From the NCBI GenBank assembly GCA_000934665.2, contig JYFJ02003796.1:1-37487 (forward strand): 37,487 nucleotides of DNA, in the 5' to 3' direction. Below the pieces are notes generated by a model. It was not told the DNA's origin and made no database searches. It saw only the letters and a list, made by a program, of their open reading frames with translations. The position numbers were made by a program, and so were the translations under genes. Positions 2,643-37,487 of the stretch are shown one piece after another. Positions within the stretch are counted from its first letter, which is position 1. Every line of letters starts with the position of its first letter. Source of the stretch: Catajapyx aquilonaris (Eukaryota).

Positions 2643-2892
2643 CTCTGACGGCACAAGTTAAAGCCCTGTATCTTCGAAAATCACATAATTGGAGATAAAT
2701 GCACCATTGCACTCCTCTTCGCAAGCCACGCCTTTTGGTACAAAGCCCCTAACTGTAGGAGAAAACCTTGCAAAGTTATGGCCAGTTGAAATCACACACT
2801 TCCATATATGATAATGGAAACAAAAACCTTTAAACGCAAATATCTCGAAATGACAATAAGCCGAGATACAGGGTTTTGACTTGGGCCGTCAG
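2643..2892. mobile_element. TA-flanked MITE with ~29-bp imperfect TIRs
   Basis: TGACGGCACAAGTTAAAGCCCTGTATCT pairs with AGATACAGGGTTTTGACTTGGGCCGTCA. Confidence 0.7.
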
Positions 2893-3286
2893 TACTGCTG
2901 TGAATGCTTTGCAAATGGAACTGTAGGTTCCCCAGGGCTGATTCTAAAAGTACCTATCCACATTCGGTCCTGGCAGCCTGGGGTGCCGAGTGGTAACAGT
3001 GTTGCCAATAATAATTATCGGACAACCCACGTATTAATGACATGGCCAGAAAGTTATGCCCACGTTTATGCCACTGGGGTAACAGTTATTGTGGAAGATC
3101 ATCATACCCATGTAACTTCAAAGTCATTGGGTAAGGGATGGCCAAAATATGATAAAAACCATCCTTACGTTGCCTAGGGTGAGAATAAAGTGTTAGAATT
3201 TTGTTCTTCCCAAAATCCTGCATCGGTGCAGTACAGGGTTCATGTGAAGCAACAATACACATCTGTCCATAATAATTCTCCTGTAG

Positions 3287-3366
3287 GTACTATATCGTGC
3301 AAAATGATATGATTTTGCATTTAGTTTCCATGCAAAATCATCTCCATTTTTGAGCAACAATAATAC
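3287..3366. repeat. Degenerate second copy of the CTATATCG foldback family
   Basis: Begins GTACTATATCG and contains GATTTTGCAT...ATGCAAAATC and TTTTTGAGC, as in 2313-2418. Confidence 0.55.
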
Positions 3367-3546
3367 ATTATAGTAGGCCTACATACTGAATAGTTTCTTT
3401 TTGTTGTACACTGAATGAGGCTATCATTGACATCCTGAGAGTAGGATGAGGCCTCGGATGAGGCCAAGTGAGATGTAAAGCCTTTTTGTATGTACATTTG
3501 TCTGGGAGGAACATCATATTGTCTTGTTCTCATTAATCCAATGTAG

Positions 3547-4138
3547 GAGTCGGAGCAGGCGCAGCTCTCGAAGCCGAAGCCAGGGACATGGTGGTCACCG
3601 TGACCGTAGGCGCCGTGCTGACCGGGACCTGTCCCATTCCAAGTCACGGTCCAAATCACAGTCTGAATCTCCTGAGCACGCCAAGGCAAGGCCCAAGACG
3701 CCTGAGGACTCTCCGTCCAGGTCAAGGTCAAAGACACCCCATGACCACTCAAAGTCCAGGTCAAGGTCAAAGACACCACATGACCAGTCAAAGTCCAGGT
3801 CAAGGTCAAAGACACCCCATGACCAGTCAAAGTCCAGGTCACATTCACCTAAAGCCGTGATGACCAGCGAATCGAAGCAGCACTCTCCATCACATGAGCC
3901 AGAAACTGATGAGGAAAGTCTTGACGATACAAATTACAAGCTGCACATTTCAACCAGCCAGGAATCAGAGGAGGGTGAAGGGGTGGACGAGAAGATGGAT
4001 GATGAGAAACAAGAACACGGGCAGCACTCCCCATCACTGACACCACCAGGCCAGAATGGGCACGAGAGTCCAGCCTTGAATGACAAGCCAGAGGAGGAGG
4101 AGGAGGCTGACATGGAGGAGGAGGAAAAGGCATGCTGA
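3547..4138 (+). CDS. Terminal coding exon of an Arg/Ser-rich (SR/SR-related) protein with an acidic tail; upstream exons not identified in the window
   Basis: Acceptor ...ccaatgtag| at 3546, then RSRSRRSSRSRS, SRSRSKTPHDQSK repeats and an E/D-rich C-terminus. Stop TGA at 4136-4138, followed by a T-rich UTR and AATAAA. Confidence 0.8.
3715..3841 (+). repeat. In-frame 39-bp coding tandem repeat, ~3.3 copies
   Basis: GTCCAGGTCAAGGTCAAAGACACC(C/A)CATGACCA(C/G)TCAAA at 3715, 3754 and 3793, with a partial copy at 3832. Confidence 0.95.
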
Positions 4139-4552: not shown

Positions 4553-5586
4553 GCTGGTTGTCATCAATAGTGTAGCTCTTGATTGGGAACGTAGGGGACG
4601 TGAGGGAGTGGGTAGGGAAATGCACAAAAATTTCATGAGAGCCTAAATTCTGCTTTTATTGGTCCATGCTTAAAGGTGTTATTACACTTTTCAGGGGCCG
4701 AATTCAGAGAGTTGCCCTAAACGCATGGTTCGAGGGCGTTTCACTAACCTTTTGGTTAAGGCTTTTAAGCAACCTCTCATACAAGGACCTCTTATGGAGG
4801 CTGGGTAGCAAAAAGAAAAAGCGAGTTGGCATCGCTGTATTACACATGTTTTGTACCCTCCAGGTATGCCCCCAACCCTGACCACCTCTCCTTCCCCCTT
4901 GACTTTTGCCACCCAACCACGTTATTTATGGGACATGTGATTTAACTCACCCTTTTATCAGGAAAGGAATGCCTTCACTGTTGCTATATGAATGCTTTTA
5001 CACCACGTTAACCTGAATTGACCTGAGGCCCAAGTACCATGTAGACCCGGAAAAATAACCCCTAAAATATCCAAAACAATAGTGACTAACCACTGAGGTC
5101 ATAGATTACACAAGCCACCTCTCCGCAACTTTGACATCTTTAACACGTAGCTAAAATGCCCACCCCCTTACTCCAACCCACAAAGATCCTCGTATCTCCA
5201 AGGTGTATGACAAAAAAAGCCCTGTTATTCATCACTTGTTGTCATTATTGCTCATCGCTCCCATACCGCCAGCCTGTTGCTTTCGAGTTCCCCCTGCACT
5301 TCTCCCGTGGGTCTCAGGCCACACTCCACCAGGACTCAGGAAGCCTATCAGCATTTGCCAGCACTCCTCTTCTCTCTCCCCAAACCAAACCTCACCCAGC
5401 AGGGTCAATTTCAAGTCCCATACACGTGATGCGCATTTTGATGTTATATGCTGGATCAGGGAAACCGAGGGGAAGATGTAGGAAAGCATTATAAACGAGA
5501 AAATTTACCATTGGCCCTTATGGGGCTCATCAAGGGACTGGAAAAAAGGGTGTTAAAAGCAGCGTAGCTTCGAGGATAGCATTATA

Positions 5587-5980
5587 CAGGGTGGTCCAAA
5601 TTCAAGTGTCGTTTTATAACGGATATTAATAGAAGCGCTTTAGGATTATCGTAGCAGCCACGTGTAAAATGGCCCACTTCGGCGCCATCGAAAATATTAG
5701 CTGTGTTTCGTTTGCAGGCTTCCCCCTTGCATTACAGGTCCATGGTCCATCTGGTGCCTTGGACGTCACCCATTTCACCCAGGCGCATCGCAGGTCATGT
5801 GTGCACATCCTTTTTTCCAGGTCAACCCAGCAGCAGGGTAGATTACATGTGTGCTGCTATTGGCAGCTAATATTTTCGATGGCGCCGAAGTGGGACATTT
5901 TACACGTCGCTGCTACGTCATTTCAAAATCACTGCTATTAATCACCGTTATAAAACGACACTTGAAGTTGAACCACCCTG
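5587..5980. mobile_element. Tc1/mariner-type MITE with long (~115 bp) TIRs
   Basis: TA|CAGGGTGGTCCAAATTCAAGTGTCGTTTTATAACGG ... CCGTTATAAAACGACACTTGAAGTTGAACCACCCTG|TA. The inner blocks CCACTTCGGCGCCATCGAAAATATTAGCTG are also inverted. Confidence 0.92.
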
Positions 5981-6377
5981 TATACGTAAACATTATATCG
6001 ATATTATACTGTATAGGTGTGAAAAATCAAAATTCCAACCAGGAATGACATAGCTTTGATGATGCCGAGCTTTTGGTTGCCCCTCATGCAAACCCTGTGA
6101 TGCACCAGCCTTGCACTTGATTCTGGAACGCATTGATGAATAAGGACCTGAGCATAACACGTATCATGCGTTTCTGTCATCCTCAACTACATCATTACAG
6201 GCTGGGTGTTCAACACTTCAACATGTTTCACCCCTACAGTATTTATGCAGCACTTACTCGTATTGGGCCAGCACGAACCCTGTTAGAAGATTGACCTTAC
6301 TGTATATTGGAAAGTATCAATGGTATATAGTGTAAAATGACATCTATCAGGTGATTCAAATGAAAGAAAGCTAGTAA

Positions 6378-8806: not shown

Positions 8807-9073
8807 ATTACCATGGCAACAGCGACATTCAGCAACATCCATAGTTTCATAATATCACCAATGATTGATTGTTGTCGATTGCAATACCACGGAAACAAGC
8901 CATGCAAAGAAGGGGTTGCAATTTAGTCACAATCAACAACAATCAAGGATTGTTGCAACTGTTGCCATGTTAACCAATTGCCATGTAATCTCGTTTTAAT
9001 TGTATGGATTCATTAAAATACAGTTCAACAAAGCGTACAAAATCCACACTCATACTTTACTTGTCCAAATGTG
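8807..9073 (+). repeat. Direct repeat copy 1 (~270 bp), downstream flank of the Piwi pseudogene
   Basis: Aligns by eye, with scattered mismatches, to 15358-15627 (e.g. GACATTCAGCAACATCCATAGTTTCATAATATCACCAATGATTGATTGTTGTCGATT is identical). Confidence 0.93.
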
Positions 9074-9574
9074 GGTTCGAAGGCGGTAGTTACATGCTGC
9101 AATATTATTGTGCCTAAGTACAGTGAAGGAAAGACAGAGACTAGACAAAGTATTTCATAATTTTATTGCCCTCCAGGCATTGTTTACCAGGTTTTTGCCA
9201 TTTTTCATTTCCCCCTTGTCCTTATGCCTTCCAAAGCTGTACAGAATGTTTTAAAATTTATAGAGGGCATTGCGCCATTAAATTAAGTGCAGTACTTGCA
9301 TGATAAGAGTATTAGCTTTACCTACAAGTGCATGCACGTAGTCATTGAAAAAAATATTCAAATAAGTTTTATTGACAAATTTTTTTGGGTCTCACCTGGA
9401 TTTGGGGAAAAAGTGCTAAAATATTAGGTAGTGTTCAAAGAATTAATGTAAGCAAGTAAGTTACCTTTCAGATGACGATTTATGAAATTCAAAGCGAGCA
9501 GCTTTCTGAAAGACTAATGAGTAAATCGCTGAGACAGAAAAATCATAACGAGCTGACATTTTAGTTTTGAAATA

Positions 9575-10190: not shown

Positions 10191-11647
10191 CATCACATAC
10201 ATAACGATTGAAACACTTGACACTTTAAACGTCAAAGCGTTTGACCATTGTGCATAGTTTGCACTTCCAATCCTTACAGGAAGTAGAGTTTGTCGCTAAT
10301 TGACTTGTGCGGAAGAGCGTGCATGTGGTTGGCCACCAAGTGGTCAACTTCTCTGCATACTGACACGGAGATGGAACCCTGACCTTTCCGCACCAGTTGA
10401 AGTACATGTGGGTCAGAATGTAGGTCGCAACCTGGACATCATCAGCTGGCACTTTCCTCTTGTTGAACAGGATGGACACATTTGCTGGGGTGACAGTGCC
10501 TTGTAAGGACTCCTGGGAGACGATCAGGAAGTCGCATTTGCCCGGGGCCATTATGCACGAGTCAACGATGGTGCCGCCAGCCGGGTTACCGCCATCGGTT
10601 GAGAAGTTCCGCGAGTTACACTGGCGGTTGACCACCGTGGCCACCAGCTTGTACGGACACAATTCGCCCAAGCAGCTCTGGTAATTGTATAGTTTGTCCA
10701 AGTAGTACTTGACCCATTGGACTTCCCTGAACATGGTGCGGGTGATCTGACCCTCACTCATGCCGTTGCGGTACACGAATATGGTGCTGGGCAATAGCCT
10801 GCTGTTGCAGTCGGCGTAGTGCTTTGCAGTGGCAGCCACCCCTTTTCCGATGTTCCGAGGCATATTATTCTCATCCGCTTCTCGGCTTGTTTGGCTGAAG
10901 TATTGGGTGCAGTTGTTGCTGTAGTTGGCCACGACCGAGCCCACAGTGGTGGCGGGATCTAACGAATTGAACGACACATCGATTCCAACGAACATCTCGT
11001 TTTCTGTAGGGTGCTCGACTGCCCAGGGCTCTCCTCCGAGCTTGCAGTTGATATGAATCGCCATTTTCACAGCGACAGATCCCAGTCCCTTATTGCCCGG
11101 ATTAAGTCGGCATCCGAGGACCATCTGGCTTGCGATGCACAGCTCCGTGTTGCACAGCACCTTCACATCATTGTATAGACATCATCAATCACTCCGTCCA
11201 TTACGACCAGTACGAGCTGGATGGGACCAGGCGACTGGCGGCTCTTCCACACGGCCCATCATGTTGGAAGGCATGGTACAACTTCCGCATGACATGCACA
11301 TGGGCAGCAGCCGATGTGTTTGCCAGGGTCTCCCTGCAAACCAAGAACTTTGTTAAAGAGGATGCTGGAAATCTCTTGTAGCACCAACCTCAGAGAATAC
11401 TGGAGGGGGGTGATTTTCCCACCCTTCATTGATCTAACACTTGCCGAAAAGGTCAAAATCAGACTTTTTCTGGTATATTTGGCAACAAGGAGACAGCAGA
11501 AAAATTTACGGATTTGTTTTTGTCCTGCGTAATTTACCGGTGAGCTAATTTTGCATTTTTGTGGATACTTTCATTATTAAATGCAGTAGTGTGCATTATA
11601 AGCATATGGAAAGCAGAAAACTTGTGTATTCATTGCAAAAGTGGTGA

Positions 11648-11718
11648 TTTGGGTACAACAGACCTCGGTTAAACTTTTTTCTGTGGTCCCTTGAAGTCTG
11701 TTACATCCGGATTCAACT
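11648..11718. mobile_element. End fragment of the 2007-2102 MITE family inside a Piwi intron
   Basis: AAGTCTGTTACATCCGGATTCAACT matches AAGTCTGTTATATCCGGATTCAACT at 2077-2101. Confidence 0.7.
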
Positions 11719-13505
11719 CACATGTGTCTCGGAAGCGGAACATGAAAGCCAAGTGCTCTGGCGGAGGGAATCAGCCGAGGTATGAACTGGGGTGGTCATG
11801 CTCATGGGCAGGTGTTGTAATTACCACCCAGTTGTTAACGACTGCGCATGCGGACATGTGACTGACTGAAAATTAAGACACAGGTTGCAGTCATTCTGGT
11901 AATTACATTTTCGCAAGCTGTCAACTACTTACACCTCAGAAATTTTGTCCAGTCCCTATTCGGATTGATCATGCCTCGTTTGCAGGACAGCGTCTGGATC
12001 TGCGGCAGAACCCGGGCGCTCACTTGGAGGCTACCGGGTCTGATGCTGATCCCCCAGTAGCTGTGCTCTCGTTGTACATGGTCGTCATTGTTACCAGAGC
12101 TGCACAGCTCCTCGATCTGGAACAACTGCTGCGCTGGCCCCATGTGGGTGTGGTGCGAGAGGGACTTCATCAGTCGGAAGGCGGATCTCATCCCGGTGGT
12201 CAGTCCGGTCAGATAGGAAAGTTCAGGCAAGAGGTAAACGGTCTCTTTGACACTATCCACAGCTTTCTTGCCCCTCTTCTTCGTGACGACCAGGAGCAGT
12301 TGCAGCGAACACTTCAGATCGATGTTGTACATCTGAAAAATGCCAATTTGTTAGTCGGTGATGCGCATAATGCCCCCAATGCACTTACATGTTTGTAGTA
12401 GTCAATAAAGGTGGTTTGCACACCCTTGTAATCAATCTTTGAGGATGGAGTCACCTTCCTGTCGACTCCTGTCACCAAGTACGCCCTGCGGTTGCAGTGC
12501 GTCATAACGACAGTCCCTTTAAAGAACTGCTCGCAGTTCTTGTGATAGTGCACTGGATCCTTAGCTCGTGCGCTGCTCATGACGTCCACAACAGTTGAAG
12601 TGCGTAGAACTTTGTGTGTCATATCCACTCGCAAGAGCAATCCGGCGTCGCGTTGATGGACTGACGTAATGTATCCGGGCCACAGCTCCAACTGCTCTCT
12701 TTCCGTCGCGATTTTTTTATTTCTGTCGTAAAAGTAGCGGCCCAGCTGATCATAATCTTTGTGCATCATACACCTGCGCAGCAATATCCCAACTATCTGC
12801 ACGGATAATCGGCATTGGATCAAGTACTTTGACGATCTGGACTTCAACTGTCATGAGTCTGCTCTCCGAATTGCACTTTGAGTAGATGGTGATGGGCTAT
12901 GGAAAAAAATTACGATGAGTATAACTATGCGGTTTACAGCTTCTCTTTTACTGACCTCTTTCACCCACTTTGCAGCGTAAAGCACAGAGCCGTCGAAAAT
13001 GTACTTTCCGAGCTTCTCCTCCATGACTTGCTTCATCGAGCGGAGAAGCCCTTTGTGGAATATCGGTTCCTCTTCTTCCGGCGTGACGGTGACTTGGTGT
13101 AGATAGATCCTAAAAGCTTCCTTTTGCTCAATCTCGAAGTAGCTCAACAGAACTTTTACTGTTCCTCCATAGCATCCCTGGCCAGGTGTGGGGAGCTGGG
13201 GAAGAAGCGGGAGTCCTTCAGCTGGCCAGATCTGTCCATCCTCCTTCTCACTGGTGTTGGACCAGTCGAAATCCCTTTCCTTTCGAGGCTTCAGCCTCAT
13301 CGAAGTGCCCTTGTTGGAGTCCACAGATGGTTAGCGCGGGGCTGGGCTTTTCTATCCGGAATAACTGATTCAGCGTTGATTCCTCCGACGGCACCTTCCT
13401 CCTCCGTCGAGCAGGCTGCTTGCTTGAACTGCAGCCTCAGAGCCTCCACTTGCAACGCTAATGTGTCGTCTGAGGCCTGCAGAAATCCAAGATGTTCTGA
13501 TTTAA

Positions 13506-13604
13506 GGGAGGCATGGTGGTCTAGCGGTTACACCGCTGGCCAGCCAAGCGGGAGGCCGGGGTTCAAATCCCGTCTCCGTCACCTCTGCTTGGCCGAGTCT
13601 TTTT
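13506..13604 (+). mobile_element. Truncated tRNA-derived SINE (5' head only)
   Basis: A-box TGGTCTAGCGG and B-box GGTTCAAATCC; near-identical to the first ~100 nt of 17141-17467. Confidence 0.85.
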
Positions 13605-14950
13605 GATAGATCTGCTACACATCAGGAACCGGCTGGCCCCACCTGGCGTCGGACAATGGGTGATCAGGATGAGGTACCGTAGTGCAAATGGCGGGTTCCA
13701 GCCCACACTGGCACCAGCTTCCGGATGTTGCGGCCTCTGCGGCTGTGGACCTCTTCCTCGAGGCCTGTTCACACCTCCCACACCTCCTTCGTCAAGCAGC
13801 CGGTTGTGTACAAGTTGTACTAATTATAATAAAGGTCCTGCAGTACCCCAAGGGGGTCCAAGCACTACCGGATTTTACTGGGCTTGATAGATCTGCTACC
13901 CATCATCAGGAACCGGCTGGCCCCATGACGTCAGACAATGGGTGATCAGGATGAGGTAGTGCAAATGGCGGGTTCCAGCCCACACTGGCTGGCTGGCCGT
14001 TTTCTCCAGTCACACCCACACCAGCTTCCGGATGTTGAGACCTCCGTGGCTGTTGACCTCTTCCTCGAGGCCTGTTCACACCTCCAAGGGCCTGGGTACT
14101 TCGTCAAAGCATCCAGTTGTGTACAAGTTGTACTAATTATAATAACGGTCCTGCAATACCCCAGGCGGGTCCAAGCACTACCGGATTTTACTGGGCTTGA
14201 TAGATCTGCTACCCATCATCAGGAACCGGCTGGCCCCATGACGTCAGACAATGGGTGATCAGGATGAGGTAGTGCAAATGGCGGGTTCCAGCCCACACTG
14301 GCACCAGCTTCCGGATGTTGCGGCCTCTGCGGCTGTGGACCTCGAGGCCTGTTCACACCTCCCACACCTCCTTCGTCAAGCAGCCGGTTGTGTACAAGTT
14401 GTACTAATTATAATAAAGGTCCTGCAGTACCCCAAGCGGGTCCAAGCACTACCGGATTTTACTGGGCTTGATAGATCTGCTACCCATCATCAGGAACCGG
14501 CTGGCCCCATGATGTCAGACAATGGGTGATCAGGATGAGGTAGTGCAAATGGCGGGTTTCAGTCCACACTGGCTGGCTGTCCGTTTTCTCCAGTCACACC
14601 CACACCAGCTTCCGGATGTTGAGGCCTCCGTGGCTGTTGACCTCTTCCTCGAGGCCTGTTCACACCTCCAAGGGCCTGGGCACTTCGTCAAAGCATCCAG
14701 TTGTGTACAAGTTGTACTAATTATAATAAAGGTCCTGCAATACCCCAAGCGGGTCCAAACACCCATCAGGAACCGGCTGGCCCCACCCGGCGTCAGACAA
14801 TGGGGGGTGATCAGGATGAGGTAGCGCAAATGGCCGGTTCCAGCCCACAGTGGCTGGCTGGCCGTTTTCTCCAGTCACACCCACACCAGCTTCTGGATGT
14901 TGAGGCTTCTGTGGCTGTGAACCTCTTCCTCGAGGCCTGTTCACACCTCT
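13605..14950. repeat. Tandem array of ~270-313-bp units (4 full + 1 partial) derived from the first coding exon of the Piwi gene
   Basis: Units start at GATAGATCTGCTAC at 13605, 13886, 14199 and 14470, with a partial unit from ~14760. The minus strand encodes GVNRPRGRG...QHPEAG. Confidence 0.95.
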
Positions 14951-15106
14951 GAGGGCCACGTTACGAATTAGGCCCCTTCGTCCTTACATGTCTAAAACAA
15001 ATGGCAACTGCAGAAATGCAATCAAAATAATTAAGTCACATCAACTGCCTACAACTATCAATGCTGCTCCATTTGATTTAAAATACACTTGAGCAGAGAG
15101 TTAATT

Positions 15107-15196
15107 AATCATCATCATCCTTCATAGCATATTCCCAAAAAGATTTGGGAGTTGCCAGCGGATAAGAAGGAGGAGGTCCTCTCTATACCCTCGTTA
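15107..15196 (-). mobile_element. Short 5'-truncated retroposon insertion
   Basis: 10-bp direct repeat AGAGTTAATT at 15097-15106 and 15197-15206 flanks a 90-bp segment that has an (ATC)n microsatellite at one end. Confidence 0.5.
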
Positions 15197-15357
15197 AGAG
15201 TTAATTNTGTTTCTATTAGTTCATATTAGTTCCCAAAACACAAAAATCTAGATAAAACAGCTTTCTGAATGCTTGTTTGCGAGGAAATGACCATTCCCTA
15301 TAATTATGGGATGCCAGAAAAATGTAACTTAGGATGCCTATAACAGTTGTTGATTAC

Positions 15358-15627
15358 ATTACCATGGCCACAGTGACATTCAGCAACATCCATAGTTTCA
15401 TAATATCACCAATGATTGATTGTTGTCGATTACATTACCATGGAAACAGGCTGTGCAAAGAAGGGGGTTGTAATTGAGTAACAATCAACAACAACTAAGG
15501 ATTGTTGCAACGGTTGCCATGTTAACCAATTCCCATGTCATCTCGTTTTGATATTGTATGGATTCATTAAAATACAGTTCAACAAAGCATACAAAATCCA
15601 CACACATACTTTACGTGTCTAAATGTG
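15358..15627 (+). repeat. Direct repeat copy 2 (~270 bp), upstream flank of the Piwi pseudogene
   Basis: Matches 8807-9073 in the same orientation. Confidence 0.93.
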
Positions 15628-16162
15628 TGTGCATTTGCCTCTTGCGTTCCCCAGAGGGGACACCAGATTTCAACACTACTCTCAAAAAAAAAAAAAAAAA
15701 AAAACTTTCAGACAAGGAAAGTAAAAAAATATGCCTATATTTCCACATCGACATCATCATTCATAAGTTTGTATTACAAACCAAAAATAACTCATAATCC
15801 TAATCAACATTCGAGAATTAATTACTAATGGTCTTCGGAACGTGGAGGTGAAGCCATTATTTCCTGTGTTAAAATTCAAACACCTCTATCTTAAAAATCT
15901 GAAGCAATATTGAGCAGGTTTGAACTTGTATCGTTAGCTGGGACTCTACTGAAGCACACTTGACTACTGCCAGCTCTTTAGCAGCAGAAGAACCTGCGCA
16001 AAAAAATTAAAATGTAACAACTGTGCAGGTGTCCCCTATTGGGGACACTCGGCATATCTGGGTTAAGAATGCCAAAAACTGGGCAATTCAATCAGAAGAG
16101 CCAGACCTGAATGTTTTCGAATGAATTTCATGCAAAAGCATACAACAAATGTACAGTACATA

Positions 16163-17140: not shown

Positions 17141-17467
17141 GGGGAGGCATGGTGGTCTGGTGGTTACGCCACTGGCCAGCCAAGCGGGAGGCCGGGGTTC
17201 AAATCCCGTCCCCGTCACCTCTGCTTGGCCGGGTCTTTTTCTGCTTTTCACCCGACATGCCGGAGCAGAATTGCACTCCCTTCTCTGCTCGGGGCCATGA
17301 GAAAAGGTCTGGTGTTTAAGAGGGTCGGCAATGACTAGAAACTACATGAGAGCGCCCTCCCTTGAGAAGCTCCCCTTCCCCATACACACCCGTGGACCAG
17401 GCCGTTGCGACGAAAACTGTATGTGAAAGAGGTCCGCACTACCCATTATTATTATTATTATTATTAT
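17141..17467 (+). mobile_element. Full-length tRNA-derived SINE with (ATT)n tail
   Basis: Pol III A/B boxes, an (ATT)8 tail and a perfect 12-bp TSD TACAGATAACAC at 17129-17140 and 17468-17479. Confidence 0.95.
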
Positions 17468-17636: not shown

Positions 17637-19076
17637 ATAATTAACTATTCATTTCCTTAAATATGACAGAGGACAGTATTTTTGGTGGGCAAAATCAATC
17701 TGATGTGGATAATTTTGCAGAGTTTAATGTATGTTAAACTCATATAGTTCCTGAGCCTACAATTACAGCCTTTGATTCAAAGATATTTGAGATGTATGAC
17801 ATAAAAGATGGCCAAGTCCACTTGAAAAAACTGGTAGTAAAATGATCAAAAACTGCTGATTACTTAAACTTCCACTGCTTTTTACATCCTTATGTTTCTG
17901 CAGTTCAGCTAAATATGCAAACATGCAATGAAATACCCAATGACATTAAAATACGTAATAATTGCTGCACATATTTGTGTTCCGCCACCCCCATTTTGAT
18001 CTCAGACCCCTCATTTTCTCCTAATATTTACTTCCCATATATGTCTAAACACCCTTTCCGTAAATATGTAAGTGTGTGCAAAATTAATACAAAGTTTGGC
18101 ATGTCATGTCGTGTACGCATCACACATGGAATTCGCCTGTGCTTTTTTTCCCTATTGGACGTAAAACACTTTCCCATTTTGCATCCTTGCTTGTTTCTGA
18201 CTATTAATATTATCAGATATTATACTGTATTATAAGAGGTGAGGGGGGAGTGTCTTTCCAAATAATGTGCGACATTGATGGAAATAAAATTATATAATAT
18301 CTTCTATAATAATAATATTATTATTAACTGTTAATATATTGTTGTCCTTGCTCGTTAAGTTCTCCGGAACCAAGAGCTTGCCGGAAAATTATGCGCATCG
18401 AATGGCGCTCAAGTACTACTTGCTGGAATGAACTGTTGGGTTCAGTGCGGAACATCTCAATACCGCTAACTTGATAAGAACACTGGAAGGACTTGGAACA
18501 ATAATAACCGACAAAGCATGGCCAAAATGAGCCTTGTTCTAGAACACTTCCCTACACACCCGTCCTGTACTGGTTCTTATTCCTATTGTACAACTATTCG
18601 TGCTGTATGATATTAGGAGCATCCATTGCCCATGTACTGACAATGGATCAGAGGCAAGTAACAGAAGGATTGGAGAAGATTCTCACCTGGCTGCGAGCTC
18701 GATGCTGCAGCTAGCTGCTCCCAGGGGGGAGCCGTCCCGACAGATTTGCTCTTGTCACGTGACCGTGGCTTTTGGCGTGACGTCATGGAGCAGAGGGTTG
18801 GAAATAAGGGGCCAGTTCGGTTATGTTCGGTTCGAACTCCCAGGGTTGGCACTACGTCCAAGCTGTGTGTAACACACAGATCTACTGAAATTAATTTAAT
18901 AATACTATGAAATGTTGGCAAATTAAATTAATTAAGAGCTAATCCGGTGCGGCAATTGGTTGGATGCGGTTGGATGTCAACCAGGCGGCCAATCAGAGAC
19001 TAGTAATATTGTGACGTCACAAGCAGGGTGACAAGCCTTAAGATATGGCACTCCGCCACTCCGTGGATATGGTCTA

Positions 19077-19438
19077 AAGGGCCGTTTACACTAGGAAACT
19101 TGTCAAATAACTAGTTGCGCAACTAGTTTAGTCCAACCTGAAAATACATGGGACAGATAGGAAGTTGCGCCCTGACCTGAAAAAGCTCCAACTTGTCATC
19201 CAACCAACTTTTTGGTTGTGGGTGGAGCCATAAGTTGTGGGTGGAGCCATAAAGTTTAGCTCTAGGGAGCATACTAGTTGTTCAACCTGGGAGGGGGAAT
19301 AGGGAATCCGACGGAATCCATCTTGAATGTTCAATGTTGGGTTGGTGGGAGGGGCGAGAAGCTGGTCACGTGGGGGGTTTTATTGCAACTAGTTGTACAA
19401 CTAGTTATTTGACAAGTTTCCTAGTGTAAACGGCCCTT
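19077..19438. mobile_element. Harbinger-like MITE with perfect 41-bp TIRs
   Basis: AAGGGCCGTTTACACTAGGAAACTTGTCAAATAACTAGTTG ... CAACTAGTTATTTGACAAGTTTCCTAGTGTAAACGGCCCTT, in a TAA/TAT context. Confidence 0.88.
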
Positions 19439-20234
19439 ATGGTGCAAGCCTTGGTGCAAGCAGGCAACTTTATTTCCAACCCATTTCGACCGTTATAATT
19501 AGAACATATTATTCAAACGGACCAATCAATACAATTATTCAAAACCCGGTTATTATTTAAATGTGTTATTAATAATATGTAAAAAGGTTGCATTTAATTA
19601 ACTCGTTCAAATTACTTTTTAGCACCGCTCAATCCCCAATCCCAATACCACATGAAGTCCTGAAAGTAAGCTCAGATCTGCGCATTGGTCAATATCAAAT
19701 ATCATGTACTCTTTTTTTTACGTTTTACATCTTACATATTACATTTTTATGACTTGCGGATAGTTTGGAGAAAAGCTGGATGGCTTAGCCTGCCTCTGTT
19801 ACTAGAGTCAATCTCTTGGAAGGCAATGCTGATCAAACATGGTGGAAGGTTTGGGAGTACTTGTGAAGCAGCTTCAATCATGCTGGATGATGTGATGTAA
19901 CCTTTACCTGATTAATAGATTGAAATATGAGTTAGTTAGCAATATAATGTTATGATTCATTTTAGAACAAGATACATACTTTGAAGGTCAATGGAAGACA
20001 GCACTGAACTCAAATCATCTTCTGAGTCAACAAAGAGCAGCTTCTGATGTGCAATGGAATGGAACTGGTGAAAAGTCAGACAACCACTGGTCTTTTGAAC
20101 GAGTTCGTCAACATCCCACTGAAAGAAGGCACATGATTCTCTAACATTACTGCTGAGTAGCTATCTATTATGTTTATGTAATAACTACAGTAATATGTAA
20201 TACTATGTTCCAGGAAAGATTGCACATGATAGAA

Positions 20235-20745
20235 CTGTACTATCGGATTCAAATACTTTTGGCCACTTTATCCTGGTCTTGAAGCAACCCTTCGCACACA
20301 CCCCACGTTAAGGAGGTGTGTGGGTGGGTGTGTTGGTGTTCATGTCTTCAATAAGGTGTGGGGACGGAGGTCTGGGTTTCTACTGAAGCTGTGGGGACTA
20401 GTCCGCATTGTGGGGACATTTCTCGGTCCCCACAGTGTTTCACACACACTGTGTACTATTAGAGTGGGGACATGTGTAAATTAGTGGGGACATGTCCCCA
20501 CTATTTTCAGTTGTAGGGTTTCACAAAAGTCAATTTTTCTCAGTCTAGGTTAGTTAGTTAGTGTAGGTTAGGGTAGGGTAGGTGTGGTTAGGTTAGGTTA
20601 GGTTAGGTTACACTCGCTTCGAAAAGTTGAATTTTCACGTCCCCACGCCTTAGTGAAGACAAGGCTGTGTGTGTGGGTGTGTGTGTGAAGGGTTGCTTCA
20701 AGACCAGGATAAAGTGGCGAAAAATATTTGAACCTGATAGTACAG
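20235..20745. mobile_element. MITE with ~65-bp TIRs carrying internal (TTAGG)n and GTGGGGAC repeats
   Basis: CTGTACTATCGGATTCAAATA...GCCACTTTATCCTGGTCTTGAAGCAACCCTTC is inverted at ~20680-20745; TTAGG run at ~20546-20610. Confidence 0.88.
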
Positions 20746-22633
20746 TACCAGTTTAATGAAACACCAAAAGATAATTTGTTTAGTTCTATCAACATTACAT
20801 GATTAACGTTGTAGAAAAAATACGAACCTTATTGGGTTTGAAGCCTGCTACCATCATAATTGCCTTCTTAAACTCCAGCTGAGTCAGGTGACCTTTACTG
20901 CCAGTGTCGTTACTCACAAACGCCTGTAAACAACACATGATAATTATGAGGTTAAAGCGGAAGCAGAGGTAGGCCCTGTATGCATATGAAGACTACCAGT
21001 TACCACTGACTTGAAGTTTGCTTAACAGCTTGTGATGCAATGATGAAAGTTTAAATGGTGCAGTTATTACTTTGTTTCAAGTGTTGGTGCAGAGTTTTAT
21101 CAAGCAAAATTGGTGGAATAGGACATACACACTACAAGCAATAATGCACCTCATCATAATAATAGCCCAATATTTTGTTTCCTGACACAATCCTCCATGA
21201 TTTGTACAAATTGACCATGAGTTCTTTCAAGGCAGTAGTTAGGAGGTTACAATAATGTAATATATTTTGCTATAGTATTTAGGATGGCAGGTAAATAAAG
21301 TTAAGATTACATTAAATCTTAATGCTGTTCACACTTAAATGGATACAATAATTTTTGGTGGTCAACTACTTTAGTCAAGCTGAATTCACATAATATTATA
21401 CGAGTATGTATAGGTTCTGGAATAAGAATACCCCAGTGGCCAGTTCTCCCATGTCGCCCATAGGGGTTAACTGAAATTAAAAACTAACTAAAGAATAGCC
21501 TGATTGCAAAATTACCAGGTCAGTTTTATAAATAAGAGGAGAGAGAACAATTCATAAAATTATGCACCCCAAACTAACTATACAGCATGAATGACAAGGA
21601 ATGCTAGTTACTTCGCAAAATATTACGTTGTTTACGGGCAGCTGTATTATGAGTAATCATATTACTCTTTGTACGAGAATCATGCAAACTCTGGATATAC
21701 ATAATTATCATCTGGACAATTTGGTCCAGCATTGTTGGGCAATGACTTGAACTTTGTCACCCACTTTGTCACCTGGCGCACTGCTGTTTCCCACTATGCT
21801 ATACAACATCGATTTGTTGTGAAGAATGTGAATGGCTTTGCTCTAGGAAACTTGCATCTGATTCTGAAACCACAGTATTGTCGAATCACTTCTGGTCTTT
21901 TAATTTATTAGGCAAATTGTATTTTGCATTATTGAAAAATGCAATTTGACCTTCTCTGTTTGGAAAGTCTCATCGTGTTGCAGTAATGCTACATATTATA
22001 CATGACGTCATACACCATATGATATACACTGTGAATTGCTACAATTTTTATGCATTACTGCATTAATTTCCCAACTAGGAACTTACCTACTTTACCCCTG
22101 GGGTAACTTGTTCACTTTTAACACTTCACATACCTTACCATGGCGGTTGCAGCATGGGTATGTTACCTTTGTTGCCCATGTTCGGGCCCTGAATACAGAT
22201 ATGTAGTTCCTCGACAAAGAGGCAATGTCCTGCATCATTAATCGAACACGACCGAAAACCGTGATACCCAACTGCCCAAGTCTTTCAGCATGAGTATGTC
22301 CCCGGCTACCGTTAGCATGCATGCTTCTAAACACAATTACGTGCAGGAGTGCCTGGGGTTGGATCCAGTTTTCACGTCTTTCGGCAACGTTCGAATTTTG
22401 TTCGAAAGCGGATTATACACACCACAAAAGAAAGATCCTTCATCTGCAATGCAATGTCACACACACCTACATATCCACACCATAATTCTGACCTTACCTT
22501 TTGTATGAGCCGGTCGGTCAAATGATGTTCGAATCCGTGCGCCATCTTGTTAGTCCAGGCCCCTTCCACTAGATGCCGACCGGGCCCTCCTCACCTTTCC
22601 GCGCGGCTGGCCTGTTATCAGGAGCATACCTGA

Positions 22634-22656: not shown

Positions 22657-22875
22657 CACTGTTTAAACCTCCCCTTTCACTGCCCACTTCCCCCAAACTT
22701 TTGCCCGTTGGTAACTGGCTCGGGAGTCGGATAAAAATCCGTTCCTTGGCTGCCTACTAGTAGCTGTTGACGTTGAGGACGCACGAGATGTCCGGCGGTT
22801 GAGGTAGCCCAGATGGTTGCAAGAGTGGCGGCGGGCATTACGAATAGTGTTGCTGCCCCACCCAGTGCTGGAAGG

Positions 22876-23124
22876 ATGATGGAAAGGGTGTGGTGGAGGA
22901 CCATAGTGTTGGTGGTGGTGGTGTGTGGACTCCAGACTCGGGCTACGACGGACCTGGGCGGGACGATACGAGACAAAGTGGTGTTGGGACTGGACCGGAG
23001 TCCCTATGTGGTTAGGGAAGACCTGGTGGTGGAGGAGAAGGGCACGCTGCTTATCCAGAGTGGGGTTGAGATGAGGTTCTTGCCCACTGTGGGCATCACG
23101 GTCAGGGGGACTATGCTGGCTCAG
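22876..23124 (+). CDS. bark: bark exon 1 (signal peptide + N-terminal beta-rich segment)
   Basis: MMERVWWRTIVLVVVVCGLQTRA...SPYVVREDLVV...GITVRGTMLAQ|gtagg, phase 0. Confidence 0.88.
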
Positions 23125-26100
23125 GTAGGTGCCACATGTATTTTGTGTGACAGGTTCAAGTGCCACAACGGTCACTCGGGTGCATGTTGCTAGATGTGGG
23201 GATCGTAATAGGATACCTTGTTATGTTGCCTGCGATAAGAGTGTGAAAATGATTGCCATGATTCATGTGTCAGAAAAGTGTCGCATTGGCAGTTTTATTG
23301 CCGAGCTTTAACTGCTGCTTGGAAAGCAAAGGCTTAGAGGTGAATGAGCCACGCCTTGACTGGCATACGATTTTGTTGAGTAATATAACACGAGCAATGA
23401 ACATCAACAATGTGCTGTGCAGCTGCACTGACACATTACAATAGCTAAATTATGCAACGATCATGAATCAAGCAAAATTACGACAGCAAGTGCAGCTGTG
23501 CAGCAACAAAAAAAAAGTTGAGGTATAATGGACCAGTCATTTTCACTGCATAATCAACAATGAAAGTGAGCACGGCTACCTTCAAGCATTATTATTATTA
23601 TTATACCGGTATTGTACGCCTGACCGAATCGATTTGCTAGAGTGATTGTACTGTAAAAATGATCGTTATCGAATCCATTGACCTAAAGCGTTATGTCAGT
23701 TCCGGCCCACACCTAAGGTGACTCACCCTTTTTTTTCCCTAGTAAAAACTGTATGAGTAAACCGCAATCTCTATCTTACCACATACTTTTGAATTAGTCA
23801 GCTGATTACAACCGGAAGACTCGAACCAATTGGAAGACATGCGATTGTTTTTTTCTTTCTTTCTTTTCCTTTCCCCGATGCTATGAGGTGAAGGAATTCT
23901 GGCGACAGGTGGACTTGAAATGGACGTTACAGGCTAGGGAAGAACTCGTTTGCATTATGTGGCCTCAGGCTAAAAACTGAAAGGAAAGGGGTTAGGTGCG
24001 TCATCTTCAACCAACGGAAAAGTCGTTACGGAGAATGAAGCGTGAGCACACCCTACCCATTAGCATTGCTTTTAATGAACACTTACAGGTTTGGTGCACC
24101 AGTAGCTACCGAGCAGGTAAAAAAGGACAATCCCATTTATTTTTGGCCGAAAATCGTGAGACAAAATGGCCGGCAAATATATTCACAGAACGTAAGAGTG
24201 TAGTCAAAGGAGCATGACGTTAGCTCAATAACAATGGGCACTATTGATAAAACCTGAATGACCATTTTGCAAATTATGAAAGCACATGAAATCAACAGAC
24301 GTAAATTTTGGCACAGATAATTTTCGCGGGTTCGCTTTTTTTTGTTATTTCCACTGGGATGGGGAACCCAACTTTCGCGATGTAGAAAGCAACCACTATT
24401 TTTGCCTGTCACTTTTTGACCAGCGCCGCCTTTTGTTAAGCAATTTGCTGTGTAACCGCAGCCACATGCCCATGACTTTTATTCCACTTATTTTTTGACT
24501 CGAAAGGCGACAATCGGCAGACACACCAGAAATTGAAGGTTCGTGTCATAGACCTGACCCTAGAGGTGACCACAAATAATATCGATGCCAATGTACACTG
24601 CACGTGAGCGGCAAAATGGCAGCACGACCCCAAGTAGAGCAGGAAAATTCGCACGTCACTGGAAACCAGCACAAACTTTGCAATACAATAGGACGGGAAG
24701 CTGGGAAAAACATTTCCCACCGAAAATATTTGCCACTGGATGTTTTACCCCCCTCCTACTAGGGGTTGGTACAATCGGACCATTGTTGTCTCTTCCTGCA
24801 TTTTAGTTGTCGTTTACAGGCAAATTCCGATGAGCATTTATGTCGCTATTTTGTAGGGGGTCCGTTTTTTTTGCATGAGAAATTAGGAGGCGACAGGAAA
24901 TAAGGAGTGGGGGCAGATAGAGAGATATGTCATTATACGAGCACTGGGAATGGGGGACAGAATAACAGTGATTTTTATGCAAGTGCTGGCTGGTTGAAGG
25001 TTTTGTTGTGGTTGGAAACACCTGCCCCCGGGTCGTGAGACCGAATATTCCTTGCCAACAATCGATCTGACACACTTTTTCGAAGACATTGGCAGCGATA
25101 GTGGTGGCTATTAATATCGGCGACCTTATTTTCGCTAATCGAAATGAATTCTGAGCTGTCCATGACAAAGCATGGAAGATGTCCAGTAGCTATTTATTTC
25201 TGCTATATTAATATGATTCCCATGATGATTCCAATGAGCCAATCCTGGTGCATTGTGCAAGTTTGTTCATATCACGTGACCAGTCGATGTTCTTTTGGTA
25301 TGCCGATAAAAATTCCTGAAATGATTAATAGTCGTAGTTATACATCACCTACAACAACGAAAACAGTAACACTCATTGCCTTATCACATAATTTTTGCCG
25401 TACTCACTAAGTATGTAGTGGAATATAAATAGCTGAAGATATGAAGGTATGCGCTTTGTGCTATCCTTGGCAATATAACTTATCAGGCTATTGTCGTTAT
25501 GAGTCATGGCTTGGTTACGGATGATTTTGGCATTGTAATGTGATTATCCACCGCAACAGTTCCGCAACTACATGATTACAAAAGTGGTGGTACTGGTGAC
25601 GTAATGATATGCAACTTTGCCTGGTAAATCGAGCATTACTCCACATAGCCAAGAACCATCAGGTAGATACCATAGAGAATCAAGAATGCCACCTTTTTTC
25701 AGCTAGGCGGGAATGGCTTCAACCTTGAGGAGACATAAGAAGCGTCGCTGATAATAGAACACAAAAGTGCACGATAGACTTGTTTACTTGGGTTATCATC
25801 CAGTGCTTATCGAAGTTGGGCCTTTTGTTCCACAACCATAAAATCCAGACTTGTAATGCACGTTCCAAATCGGCAACACGGAAAAAAATATATACAGTTT
25901 GACGCCTTAAATAGGTCGTTTGCTTTTCCGGAACTAACTGTAACGCAGATATCCCATAATAAACGATTTTTCTTTGGGGTCACGAGCCCCATTTCAGAGG
26001 TGATAAAAAGGAAAATAAGCGAAGTGTGACTGTCTCCGGCGCTTCATCTTTGATTTAGGTGGGATAAAAGGAACAATGCTGAACACCTATGGGAAGGGTT

Positions 26101-29100
26101 TTGTCACGGTTTTAGGGGTTTCACTTTTCGCCCATTTCTTCCGTATGTTTTTGGGAGTGGAGACTTTATGCCCCATGCCTGCCAGGCGATATTGCCATCG
26201 CCATAAGTAGGGCCTGACCTCCCTCACATGCCCAAACCATTATGTTCATGCGCGTGTAGCACCACAGATAGCGTTGTGAAGAGTGAGTTACCACCAACAT
26301 ATGACACCAGGTATATCACCTTGATAGGAGGTAGGCATGTGCAAGCCAGTCATTTTTTTTTTGTTATGAGACATATATTGACGCAGAGGTTGATAACCCT
26401 TTTTGGCCGTACCCACAGTCGTCTAAATAAGTTAGAGCCGTTCCCACTGCTCCACCCATTCGATGTCACTCCTGCTCTCATACCCGAAACCCCGTGGTTA
26501 TTAAGATTGCTAGCAAGCCCAAGCAATAGGGAAGGTCTCAAGTACGGGGTGAGTCACCACAGCCCTCCAATGATCGACTCTATAGGCACCAAAAAATTAC
26601 GGTTTTGTATAATAAATCCCTGTCCATAATAAAGCCCAGTCATCGCAGCTGCAGTGTTTCTATGACATGACAATTAAATTGATTACAATGATTATCCGGC
26701 GTGGTAATTGATGTGAAGTGTCAATCAAACCCATGCATTTTATATCGTACTTATGGCATTTATTTGATGTCGTATTTATTTGGCGCATGAATTTATTTCC
26801 AGGGCGAAGAAGGAGCGCAGATTTTGATGAATAGCTATGTGGAACCATCCAGAGTTGAACCATGGCCATCCATCCGTCTGGTTGACGGGCCATCACCATT
26901 GGAGGGCCGCGTGCAGATACTGTACAGAGGAAAATGGCGGTCGATTTGCACCAATTCCAGAAAGTGAGTGTTGTTTCTTCCACCAGCAAGCTCTTGTCCC
27001 CCCAAGGGCTCATGCATGGCATATGGCAATCAAACGCTTGATACCGAAAGTGAGATAGGCGGCAGCGTTGCCTGGCTGCTCTGTAGTTTGTCCGTAATAT
27101 GTGGAGCAGTCATATTGATCTTAGACGGGTCATTCCACCTGTTAAGACTTCGATCTGTTCCTAAAGCTTCCGGTATATACAATGGTGTGTATGAAATAAG
27201 CGCGTTTCCAAGAATAGGCGTGATGTTAGTCACGCATTGGCAAGGAGTGGTCCCATTTTGGAAAATCGTGGGGAGAATGATCTGAGGTCGTAGTACTTGT
27301 AGTGTAGTAGGCTACAATCTATAAAATCAATGAAATATATTTATGAAATAAATCTGTGCTACTCCAGCAAAATCTACGCCATGTGTGTTTATTATAATAC
27401 AAGTATGACCAGAAATTGGCACAGACACAATAGACTGCTGTGTACAGTATTGGTTATTTTGGGCAAAAGAAGTTGAACAAACCACTGTTGAATGTCTATA
27501 ACTGTGATTTGGCCGGAATAACTCGGAATTTTGACAGGCTGAGAAGATGGTTTGAAGATGATGTTGCTTTTTTTTCTTTTTCATTTTCTTCTGATTGTTG
27601 CACTTGGTGGTTGAATCAGAGCACGTCCTGAGACACGCTCCATAAGATTTGCGCTGGCAAAGAGACACTTCCTTTGTTCACCCATCCTCACGTACACTCC
27701 ATTAGTGGTCCGAGTCCCCAGCACTCCTTTCGGGTCGCGGTTTTTTGAACATAAGACACACGACTACAGTGCTGCGCGCAATTTTCGAAATAGGTGTGGT
27801 TTTTTTGAGACCATCTATATCCGCCCTTGCGATCCGGTTTATGGTTCTTAGGTGTGCATTATAAAAGGTTTCCGTGTTGTAAACATAGCAATTCCGCATT
27901 AAAAAGTAGCAAAAAATGACAATTCACAGTTATGTTGCTGAATAGATTAGAGACAGTCGTAAGCCGCATTTTTGTGCTGCCTGGTAGTCATAAAGTTGAG
28001 AATACCTTACCGTCGTTGCGCTGATTTAACACAGACTATTCGTGAGGATTTTAAATTTTACAGGACGAAAAAAATGCCGATTGCCTGTAAATGTCGTTCT
28101 GTCTGATTGATCAGTCCAGTTGTATAATTCGCATGTGCATCGCATGTCCAATCACATTATTACGGTGTAATAAAGTAGGATAATAAGCGCGTAGAAGTTA
28201 GTATTAGCTGAAGGTAGGTAATCCGAAGGTTCGGAACCTTGGCCTCAGATCTGCCCGTGAAGACCCTTTTTTATGCCTTCCACCTGGATTTCATGCAGAG
28301 AAGGCTCACGAAGGGTCTTTGACTTCGAAGAATCTTCCAGATTGACCTTCGAGCATATGAGAGTTTTGAGCATCAGACAATGCACATGTGACGACCTAGA
28401 CCTCATGGAGGTGCCAATGTTAACCACCATTGCTTGACCCTGTAGCTGGACCAGTGCAGATCTCCATACCGCTTGCCGACAACTGGGGTTCACCGGAGGC
28501 GAGTTCTCCCAATGGTACGACCACTACAACCTGACCCATCAGATGCTGTACGAGAAGCCCAATTGCACCGGCAACGAGGTGTCCCTGCAACAATGCGACT
28601 GGAACAGCCGAGAGATGGGTAGCGGAGTTTGTGGTAAGTCCTGGTTGTCTTGGCGGTTGAGGGAATGTAAAATTGAGCGTGTCTCCCCGAGTGTCGCGAG
28701 AGGAAGGAGATGGGCTGGATCCATTACTTGAGCTGCGAGGTTCATTAGTAGAGCGTGTAAGGAACGAGGGGGCGGAGGTGGGGAGGAAGAGATTTTGACC
28801 TTTGAACCATGGGTGTGCTCTGGTTGAAGGGGCATGCTGAGCAATGATTGACGCATTGATGGGCCCAGGTGGAAATAGAATTAATTAGCGACATCCTGGG
28901 ACCATATGGGAGATTACCACCAATTCGGGGCTGGAGTGGGTGGCATTCATATAAGGTGGTGGGTGGGACATGCATATTGGTTCTTCATTGTACTATCTTC
29001 TTTAGATTGATAGTCGTTAATAGGAGGGTTACAGCACCTCATCCGATTCATATTCGTACGAAGGCATCTCGCCCGATGTACTTTCCGTTCGACGTGACAA

Positions 29101-37045: not shown

Positions 37046-37308
37046 GTAAGAAGCCAAGTTTTATATCAAATACAACTCTCAAGCAAAACAGTCTGTTGGT
37101 TACATTTAGGGAAAAATAGTCAAATATGCCATTCAGAACAGTTGGTGGGTTTTTCATGCTACTTCTAGTTAGCAGCACCACCTGCTATTGACACCCAGAA
37201 AACGCGGAGGTATCTCCACCTAGCGGCTGACGGTGTAAGTTCTTGAGTGCTGGAATGGCTGTTGCCTATGGCAGGCAATGAGGAAACGACGCTCGGAAAA
37301 AGTCTAAT

Positions 37309-37442
37309 ATGAATTGTTGCGTGGGCGGGTACCACCAGTCATACAGCCAAGGTGTGCCTGGAACTATGTTCTACACGTTTCCAGGAAAGCCCTGGGAAAA
37401 CGAGTAGCACGACTAGTGGATTCAGGCAATGAAAATAATCAA
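37309..37442 (+). pseudogene. Decayed THAP-domain ORF (DNA transposon relic) in bark intron 9
   Basis: Manual translation MNCCVGGYHQSYSQGVPGTMFYTFPGKPWENE*HD*WIQAMK fits the THAP pattern C-x-V-x-G-C...F-x-x-FP...R-x-x-W, with the second Cys lost and two stops. Confidence 0.65.
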
Positions 37443-37487
37443 GTTTGCTTCATGAGAGACGTTGATGAGCACTCACAAATCACTCCT

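Follow-up and report, generated by a model that had tools for sequence, protein, structure and literature searches.

The 37,487-bp window analyzed here, from contig JYFJ02003796.1 of Catajapyx aquilonaris, contains a five-unit, 1.4-kb, single-locus tandem repeat of SINE and exon sequence inside a Piwi pseudogene. Each unit is a chimera of ~207 bp of the Piwi first coding exon (codons ~11–80) and the last ~90–105 bp of a dispersed SINE (named SINE-B herein). The array is a transposon-seeded tandem repeat, a kind already known from the SINE-derived repeats outlined in PMC9659126. We consider neutral decay of one member of a large Piwi family with rapid turnover the probable history of the locus, with a SINE insertion, a microhomology-mediated duplication, and unequal exchange around or after the death of the gene. 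Most likely read in this way, the array is a small, clear case of a retroelement insertion seeding a tandem repeat from coding sequence, and both founding junctions are legible against intact paralogs.

The array was confirmed in the position given by the initial annotation, with unit starts at 13605, 13886, 14199, 14470, and ~14761. Units U1 to U4 are 281, 313, 271, and 291 bp long, U5 is the native exon, and the alternation of short and long units reflects a 30-bp deletion common to U1 and U3. Unit lengths, short/long order, and the minus-strand peptide GVNRPRGRG...QHPEAG were all reproduced from the sequence, as was a 6-nt deletion in the RGRG codons of one unit, which is U3. Tandem Repeats Finder and a second repeat finder were concordant on the array. 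The repeat is well above chance (BLAST self-matches to E = 0.0), and none of 35 SINE-centred control loci has a direct repeat of at least 150 nt. Several parts of the earlier description changed. The supposed partial long unit is U5, the native exon with its start codon, and about one-third of each unit is the 3' end of a dispersed SINE and not Piwi. Features of the array and its host gene are as follows, in window coordinates.

10274–13475, minus strand: Piwi-clade pseudogene body, coding exons 2–6 (N, L1, PAZ, L2, MID, and PIWI), from Pfam and paralog comparison
13506–13604, plus strand: SINE-A head, cut at its 3' side, forming the array's left boundary (first-look candidates: 1217, of which 40 were scored, at 96–100%)
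13605–13777, minus strand: U1 Piwi exon fragment, short (A) type, with the 30-bp deletion and a 5-bp insertion, from sequence comparison
13787–13877, plus strand: spacer 1, SINE-B 3' end with a short tail, consensus positions 243–335, from the SINE-B consensus
13878–14092, minus strand: U2 Piwi exon fragment, long (B) type, codons ~11–80, from paralog and SINE comparison
14088–14190, plus strand: spacer 2, SINE-B 3' end, consensus positions ~229–335, containing the false "start" discussed below, from the SINE-B consensus
14191–14361, minus strand: U3 Piwi exon fragment, B type on the left and A type on the right, with the 6-nt RGRG deletion, from unit comparison
14371–14461, plus strand: spacer 3, SINE-B 3' end, A type, from the SINE-B consensus
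14462–14676, minus strand: U4 Piwi exon fragment, long (B) type, from unit comparison
14672–14762, plus strand: spacer 4, SINE-B 3' end, with the tail and adjoining exon bases deleted, from the SINE-B consensus
14761–15007, minus strand: U5, the native first coding exon, with acceptor and a 13-nt insertion before the ATG, from paralog comparison
17142–17467, plus strand: longer SINE-A copy, (ATT)n-tailed, inside what is presumed to be the first intron, from repeat and paralog comparison
18538–19625, minus strand: upstream block conserved with paralogs (67–80% identity), with CCAAT-like boxes, a presumed non-coding first exon

The spacers match a repeat found well beyond the array. Among the 40 matches listed for a spacer query, 36 fall outside it. 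SINE-B is ~335 bp long and dispersed, with 1100 first-look candidates in a search with its 3' part; the long units hold consensus positions of about 229–335 and the short units 243–335. SINE-B tails are (ATTT/ATT)n simple repeats. Thirty genomic copies were compared, taken as the best matches to a 146-bp query, a choice that under-samples short truncated copies. Their best-matching target-site duplications are 5–19 nt long, reach at least 10 nt in 22 of the 30, and frequently start with TA, as at the array junction. SINE-B is thus a dispersed short element with many copies, a simple-repeat tail, and short target duplications, as is typical of SINEs. Its consensus contains a B-box-like GTTCGATCC and a near A box; the candidate Pol III boxes in both SINE-A and SINE-B are assigned by likeness to the general box consensus. 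No match to a tRNA was found in Rfam for the SINE at three loci (five Rfam matches, all far below gathering scores), and ARAGORN identified no tRNA genes within the window.

The overlooked SINE-B piece explains both the unit boundaries and a feature of the long units that had been described as a dead start codon. The two sequences compared in that description, ATG TAA GGA CGA AG at 14989 and ATG CTT TGA CGA AG in U2 and U4, are both present. The second is the reverse complement of SINE-B and not a duplicated Piwi start, an origin that the SINE-B consensus rules out. Its core, CTTCGTCAAAG, occurs in 22 of the 30 SINE-B genomic copies, and AAAGCAT, the letters forming the false ATG, in 0 of 30. 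Judged from these copies, the 7 nt by which it resembles the true start are coincidental. The 99-bp SINE-A head that borders the array has an A-box-like sequence at 13517–13527, a B-box-like sequence at 13561, and a T5 run at 13600–13604, and other SINE-A copies extend beyond the point at which the window's copy is cut off. The two SINEs differ in their heads and are related at their 3' ends (L032, L033, and L035 compared with the SINE-B consensus). Two SINE-A copies (L031 and L034) have a different, A-tailed 3' end.

The host gene has Pfam matches to Piwi, PAZ, and ArgoL1, and its body is 85–88% identical to intact paralogs. With PAZ and PIWI domains and disabling lesions, it is a PIWI-clade pseudogene, the clade call having been made with an intact paralog as query. 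The lesions include a stop directly after the start codon in U5 (ATG TAA at 14989–14984) and six frameshifting indels (near 13321, 12813, 11794, 11245, 11179, and 10340). A 1-nt insertion that seemed to lie near 13478 was not counted, being an artefact of the alignment edge. The dN/dS ratio of the host-gene branch is 0.38 (bootstrap 0.29–0.52; 877 codons compared), and that between the two intact paralogs is 0.15. Together, the ATG-TAA, the frameshifts, and these ratios indicate a copy that was functional over the greater part of its history before dying. By our own estimate, with the functional dN/dS taken as 0.17, it would have been dead for ~0.03–0.09 substitutions per site. An acceptor lies 5 nt ahead of the ATG in six of six paralog loci, and the conserved upstream block contains a putative donor GT at 18686–18685. 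These sites make it very probable that the amplified exon is the first to be coding, and not the first exon as initially named. The second coding exon opens in frame at ASDD directly after an acceptor-like AG (13478–13505). An insertion of ~330 bp in the last intron of the pseudogene (11360–11688) has a partial match to contig C5800.

The genome contains 60 Piwi-domain matches, and the same exon occurs on six other contigs. Two paralogs were modelled as intact six-exon genes, each of 1079 residues and with the exon present once:

L014:2081–5627: intact paralog C7657
L013:3982–7501: intact paralog C5214

Two further paralogs, ended by contig edges, are open over their available length and have one exon copy. 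The best solved relative of the intact paralog is Siwi (PDB 5GUH, E = 5e-55), and C7657 and C5214 have YRNG and YAEKL/YSEKL at what we take to be the positions of slicing-Piwi catalytic residues. The 3' region of C5214 (L013:7500–8200) contains a ~35-bp tandem repeat and an N-joined duplicate of the last codons, likely an assembly artefact. Unlike more distant paralogs, which have GRARGRARG-type runs, the host subgroup has only GRRG and RGRG at its N-terminus. Its intact members have three PAM2-like repeats (PNPDAPDFVP type; Pfam PAM2 E = 0.002–0.006, below the curated cut-off), which the paralog comparison shows to be absent from the window's copy. In that copy, the second coding exon lacks the ~84 codons that hold these repeats; the paralogs may have gained them after the split, or this copy may have lost them precisely. 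As far as the predicted proteins indicate, the actual N-terminal motif repetition in this subgroup is that of the PAM2-like repeats and not of RG.

The first coding exon is duplicated in two of 14 other Piwi loci (C3711 and C3294), compared with none of the 35 controls (P = 0.08). This count includes eight of 20 distant Piwi-domain loci that were fetched, those with a recognizable first coding exon; the other 12 were truncated at contig ends, of AGO type, or had no N-terminus found. The recurrence hints at something that pure chance does not comfortably explain. In C3711 (L015, about 13000–15860), a LINE that is 5'-truncated and has an (ATT)n tail has been inserted, and its frame continues the Piwi N-terminus; this locus also has a stop at codon 434, and its first coding exon is partly duplicated in tandem. 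This LINE and SINE-B have their tail type in common and no clear 3' homology, based on the one LINE compared. C3294 (L074:1662–2374 and 2806–3532) has a ~730-bp 5' duplication that includes the RG exon, with the upstream copy frameshifted.

Both junctions that define the unit can be read against the paralogs. At one, the SINE-B tail joins the exon at a shared TA (...CAA GCC CAG TA), changing TAC to TAA at codon 80 in three of three intact junctions. The opposite SINE/exon junction, 207 bp away, has a shared 5-nt GGGCC, found at 14088–14092 in both the U2 exon fragment and SINE-B. At the 5' junction, a resemblance extending over 20 nt is within chance, as 13.6% of random pairs are equal or better. 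The geometry of the junctions is target, truncated insert, target. The exon site is bounded by TA on either side, 12 nt apart, and the exon has seven TA dinucleotides in 345 nt. The LINE of C3711 lies at the same exon site, and the CCCAG there also closes its 13-nt target duplication, so the site appears to draw this insertion machinery. That two Piwi paralogs were each hit by a retroelement within these few bases likely reflects a target preference.

We propose that SINE-B inserted antisense in the first coding exon, which would have made the stop at codon 80. The junction is observed, and its tail plus TA suggests that the insertion was target-primed. A duplication through the shared GGGCC would then have linked the SINE body to the exon and produced the founding unit, whose junction is likewise observed. 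Five units would have arisen from the resulting direct repeats of ~200 bp by unequal crossing-over and gene conversion, and the A-B-A-B order would consist of B-type units plus a recent A-type tract copied into U3 (the mosaic is seen in the sequence; copying is its presumed mechanism). We slightly favour an insertion followed by microhomology duplication over one 5'-truncated insertion that brought a ~207-bp target-site duplication with it. What could tell these two origins apart, the array's left edge, is deleted together with the 3' part of SINE-A. A long flanking duplication was found at none of the 30 other SINE-B copies, and long target duplication was rejected as a habit of the family; the founding event would therefore be unusual for SINE-B by either route.

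The unit has not dispersed. The exon piece is restricted to the array and Piwi loci (nine of nine candidates scored), and the SINE-A/Piwi junction was found once in the genome, with no second copy. The unit was therefore rejected as a dispersed element of its own. The occurrence of the unit unlinked to Piwi genes had been proposed as a check on the array's Piwi origin; the exon part was not found outside Piwi loci, and the SINE part is dispersed.

The split between U5 and the other units is the oldest in the array (6.5%–8.1% divergence), equal to 0.03–0.04 substitutions per site per lineage. The initial annotation described an A-B-A-B dimer of ~584 bp in a recent, higher-order array. The alternation holds, but the clean dimer does not. 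Between the two "dimers" there are 10 differences in 492 bases, with one substitution in ~234 bp of the short-unit half versus nine in ~258 bp of the long-unit half (Fisher P = 0.02), and a 2-bp deletion and a 3-bp duplication are present in the left parts of U2, U3, and U4 and not in U1 or U5. The uneven halves and shared indels point to U3 as a B/A mosaic produced by recent conversion or double exchange, and not by amplification of a fixed dimer. "Recent" is correct for the last exchange alone (0.4% in the short-unit half) and not for the oldest split. Birth of the array from a Piwi exon is supported to a limited extent by the confinement of the exon piece to the array and Piwi paralogs. The term higher-order satellite was rejected, since there are two monomer types but neither uniform multimer identity nor many copies (five units at one locus). 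With the gene dead for ~0.03–0.09 and the oldest split at 0.03–0.04, the array is estimated to have begun at about the time of gene death or after it, and it may have been the SINE insertion that killed the gene.

The initial annotation offered as one explanation an expansion of RG-motif copy number. Other Piwi proteins are known to be arginine-methylated at the N-terminus and to bind Tudor domains (PMC10212539), and the unit does hold RGRG codons (a predicted Tudor-binding motif), in an exon that is duplicated in C3711 and C3294 too. The extra copies in those loci are broken (truncated in C3711, and with a 20-nt deletion and a frameshift in C3294), none of the loci examined encodes multiplied RG exons, and the proposed check for repeated N-terminal exons found one copy in both intact paralogs and in the two open partial ones. 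Within the array, the junction that defines the unit makes a stop, with TAA after ...QAQ (codon 79) at three of three intact SINE junctions, and the spacer is SINE. The units share no frame (lengths modulo 3 of 2, 1, 1, and 0), same-frame RPRG motifs are separated by stops, and the longest stop-free minus-strand frame in the array is 114 codons long and has no RPRG pair. Splicing-out of the spacers was judged by eye and rejected, with a weak GT after the junction and no pyrimidine tract before the candidate AGs; the 2-bp deletion in U2–U4 shifts the frame regardless. Since each intact SINE junction creates a stop, the predicted reading frames rule out an RG-motif expansion at the protein level, and a relic of a formerly functional expansion is highly improbable. 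As the array is untranslatable, methylation and Tudor biology would not apply to it, and it has no bearing on Tudor-binding valency. An error of assembly, in which two haplotypes of a three-unit array (A-B-native) were set in tandem, is a more serious but still unlikely alternative. The genome is fragmented (20,583 contigs), paralog C5214 has an N-joined duplicated 3' end, and the like units differ by just 10 bases in 492. Support was drawn from the contigs of four runs on a single sample, which may be the very data that the assembly was built from. These give no cover to 14051–14304, including the U2-to-U3 junction, in any of the four runs, a gap that is compatible with such an error and in itself uninformative either way. 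However, contigs from all four runs cover the SINE–exon chimera itself, and all four cover the U4/U5 junction without mismatch. The short-unit spacer junction is also present in contigs, with each of the two letters that distinguish spacer 1 from spacer 3. The B-type left part of U3 and its intact tail junction are not derivable from a simple haplotype pair. Summed contig depth over the array is ~0.7–1.1 of the flanks and not ~0.5 (our own sums, in which depth is not a copy number), which gives weak grounds for saying that a much longer array has not been collapsed.

A further alternative is that the array was favoured as the source of a SINE-like chimeric RNA or of piRNAs against the intact Piwi paralogs or SINE-B, which we regard as improbable. 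The plus strand does offer such a transcript, as SINE-A head, antisense Piwi, and SINE-B 3' end form a 372-nt unit (13506–13877) with three more antisense exon copies beyond it. The next T4 after the head is only at the SINE-B tail (13873), and the T5 that follows the head is also internal to five of five longer SINE-A copies read. The upstream block retained in the pseudogene is promoter-like, a putative promoter whose transcript might serve as the piRNA source instead. A precedent exists in drosophilid telomeric LINEs with amplified aub/piwi fragments and piRNAs against the host gene, as these are described in PMC13534243 and PMC7785250. Between paralog subgroups, the duplicated segment differs at 16–18 of 207 positions versus 13–23 of 455 in the rest of the N-terminus (P = 0.005–0.11, from four non-independent paralog pairs). 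Within subgroups the segment differs less (2/207 versus 15/455, and 1/207 versus 11/455), a pattern that fits patchy gene conversion. The SINE-A head was attached by deletion, and no mobilized copy exists, unlike in the drosophilid cases. The units are only 82%–86% identical to the intact paralogs, and between 0 and 10 of 146–204 26-mers per unit match them with two mismatches or fewer. In the drosophilid data given in PMC13534243, host-gene piRNAs are nearly nil at ~79%–82% identity. In gene capture of the TART-A/nxf2 type the carrier is mobile and multi-copy; the chimeric junction here occurs once in the genome. That the dead Piwi gene is an in-place gene-capture element at its birth, with small RNAs damping the intact paralogs, is similarly doubtful. 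If it were true, the exon duplications in the family (three of 15 loci) would mirror that conflict, and if the chimera did give rise to small RNAs against intact Piwi, it would be a SINE route to the counter-silencing known from fly telomeric LINEs. Under neutral decay, the preferred reading, the array would encode nothing and have no function.

Several known systems resemble parts of this locus. Like the SINE-derived minisatellites and satellites treated in PMC9659126, the array has a SINE piece in a head-to-tail unit and is consistent with amplification by local repair or recombination; unlike the cases described there, two-thirds of the unit is host coding exon, at one locus and in five units. 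Small tandem duplications at human L1 insertions are regarded as large target-site duplications in bioRxiv 10.1101/2024.12.14.628481, and the arrangement reported there, of target, 5'-truncated tailed insert, and target with 5' microhomology, is the one seen here. Those duplications are 1–10 kb long, whereas this one is ~207 bp and involves an invertebrate SINE, for which a two-step origin fits equally. The drosophilid telomeric LINEs that captured aub, piwi, or nxf2 likewise combine a piRNA-gene fragment and a retroelement in several tandem copies, but as presented in PMC13534243 and PMC7785250 the fragment is in a mobile multi-copy element at ~90% identity, with piRNAs demonstrated. Here, the Piwi fragment stays in its own dead gene at 82%–86% identity to intact paralogs, with no daughter copy. 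The host gene resembles cichlid piwil1, as summarized in PMC11753138, in being a PIWI-clade paralog of a lineage-specific expanded family with pseudogenes. In a literature search covering titles and the starts of abstracts, none of the titles concerned a Piwi exon and a SINE arrayed in tandem.

High-copy dispersed repeats and MITE-like elements with inverted repeats flank the gene (15205–16066, 8807–9076, 19077–19438, 20234–20746, and 5583–5984). A large gene has exons on the plus strand at 22677–37487, which include beta-helix repeats (Pfam Beta_helix) and SRCR/CUB-like stretches; it presumably resembles the arthropod bark beetle protein. An RS-rich open frame at 3479–4138, also on the plus strand, contains a 39-bp tandem repeat (3715–3841), has no Pfam match, and is probably the last exon of an SR-type gene.
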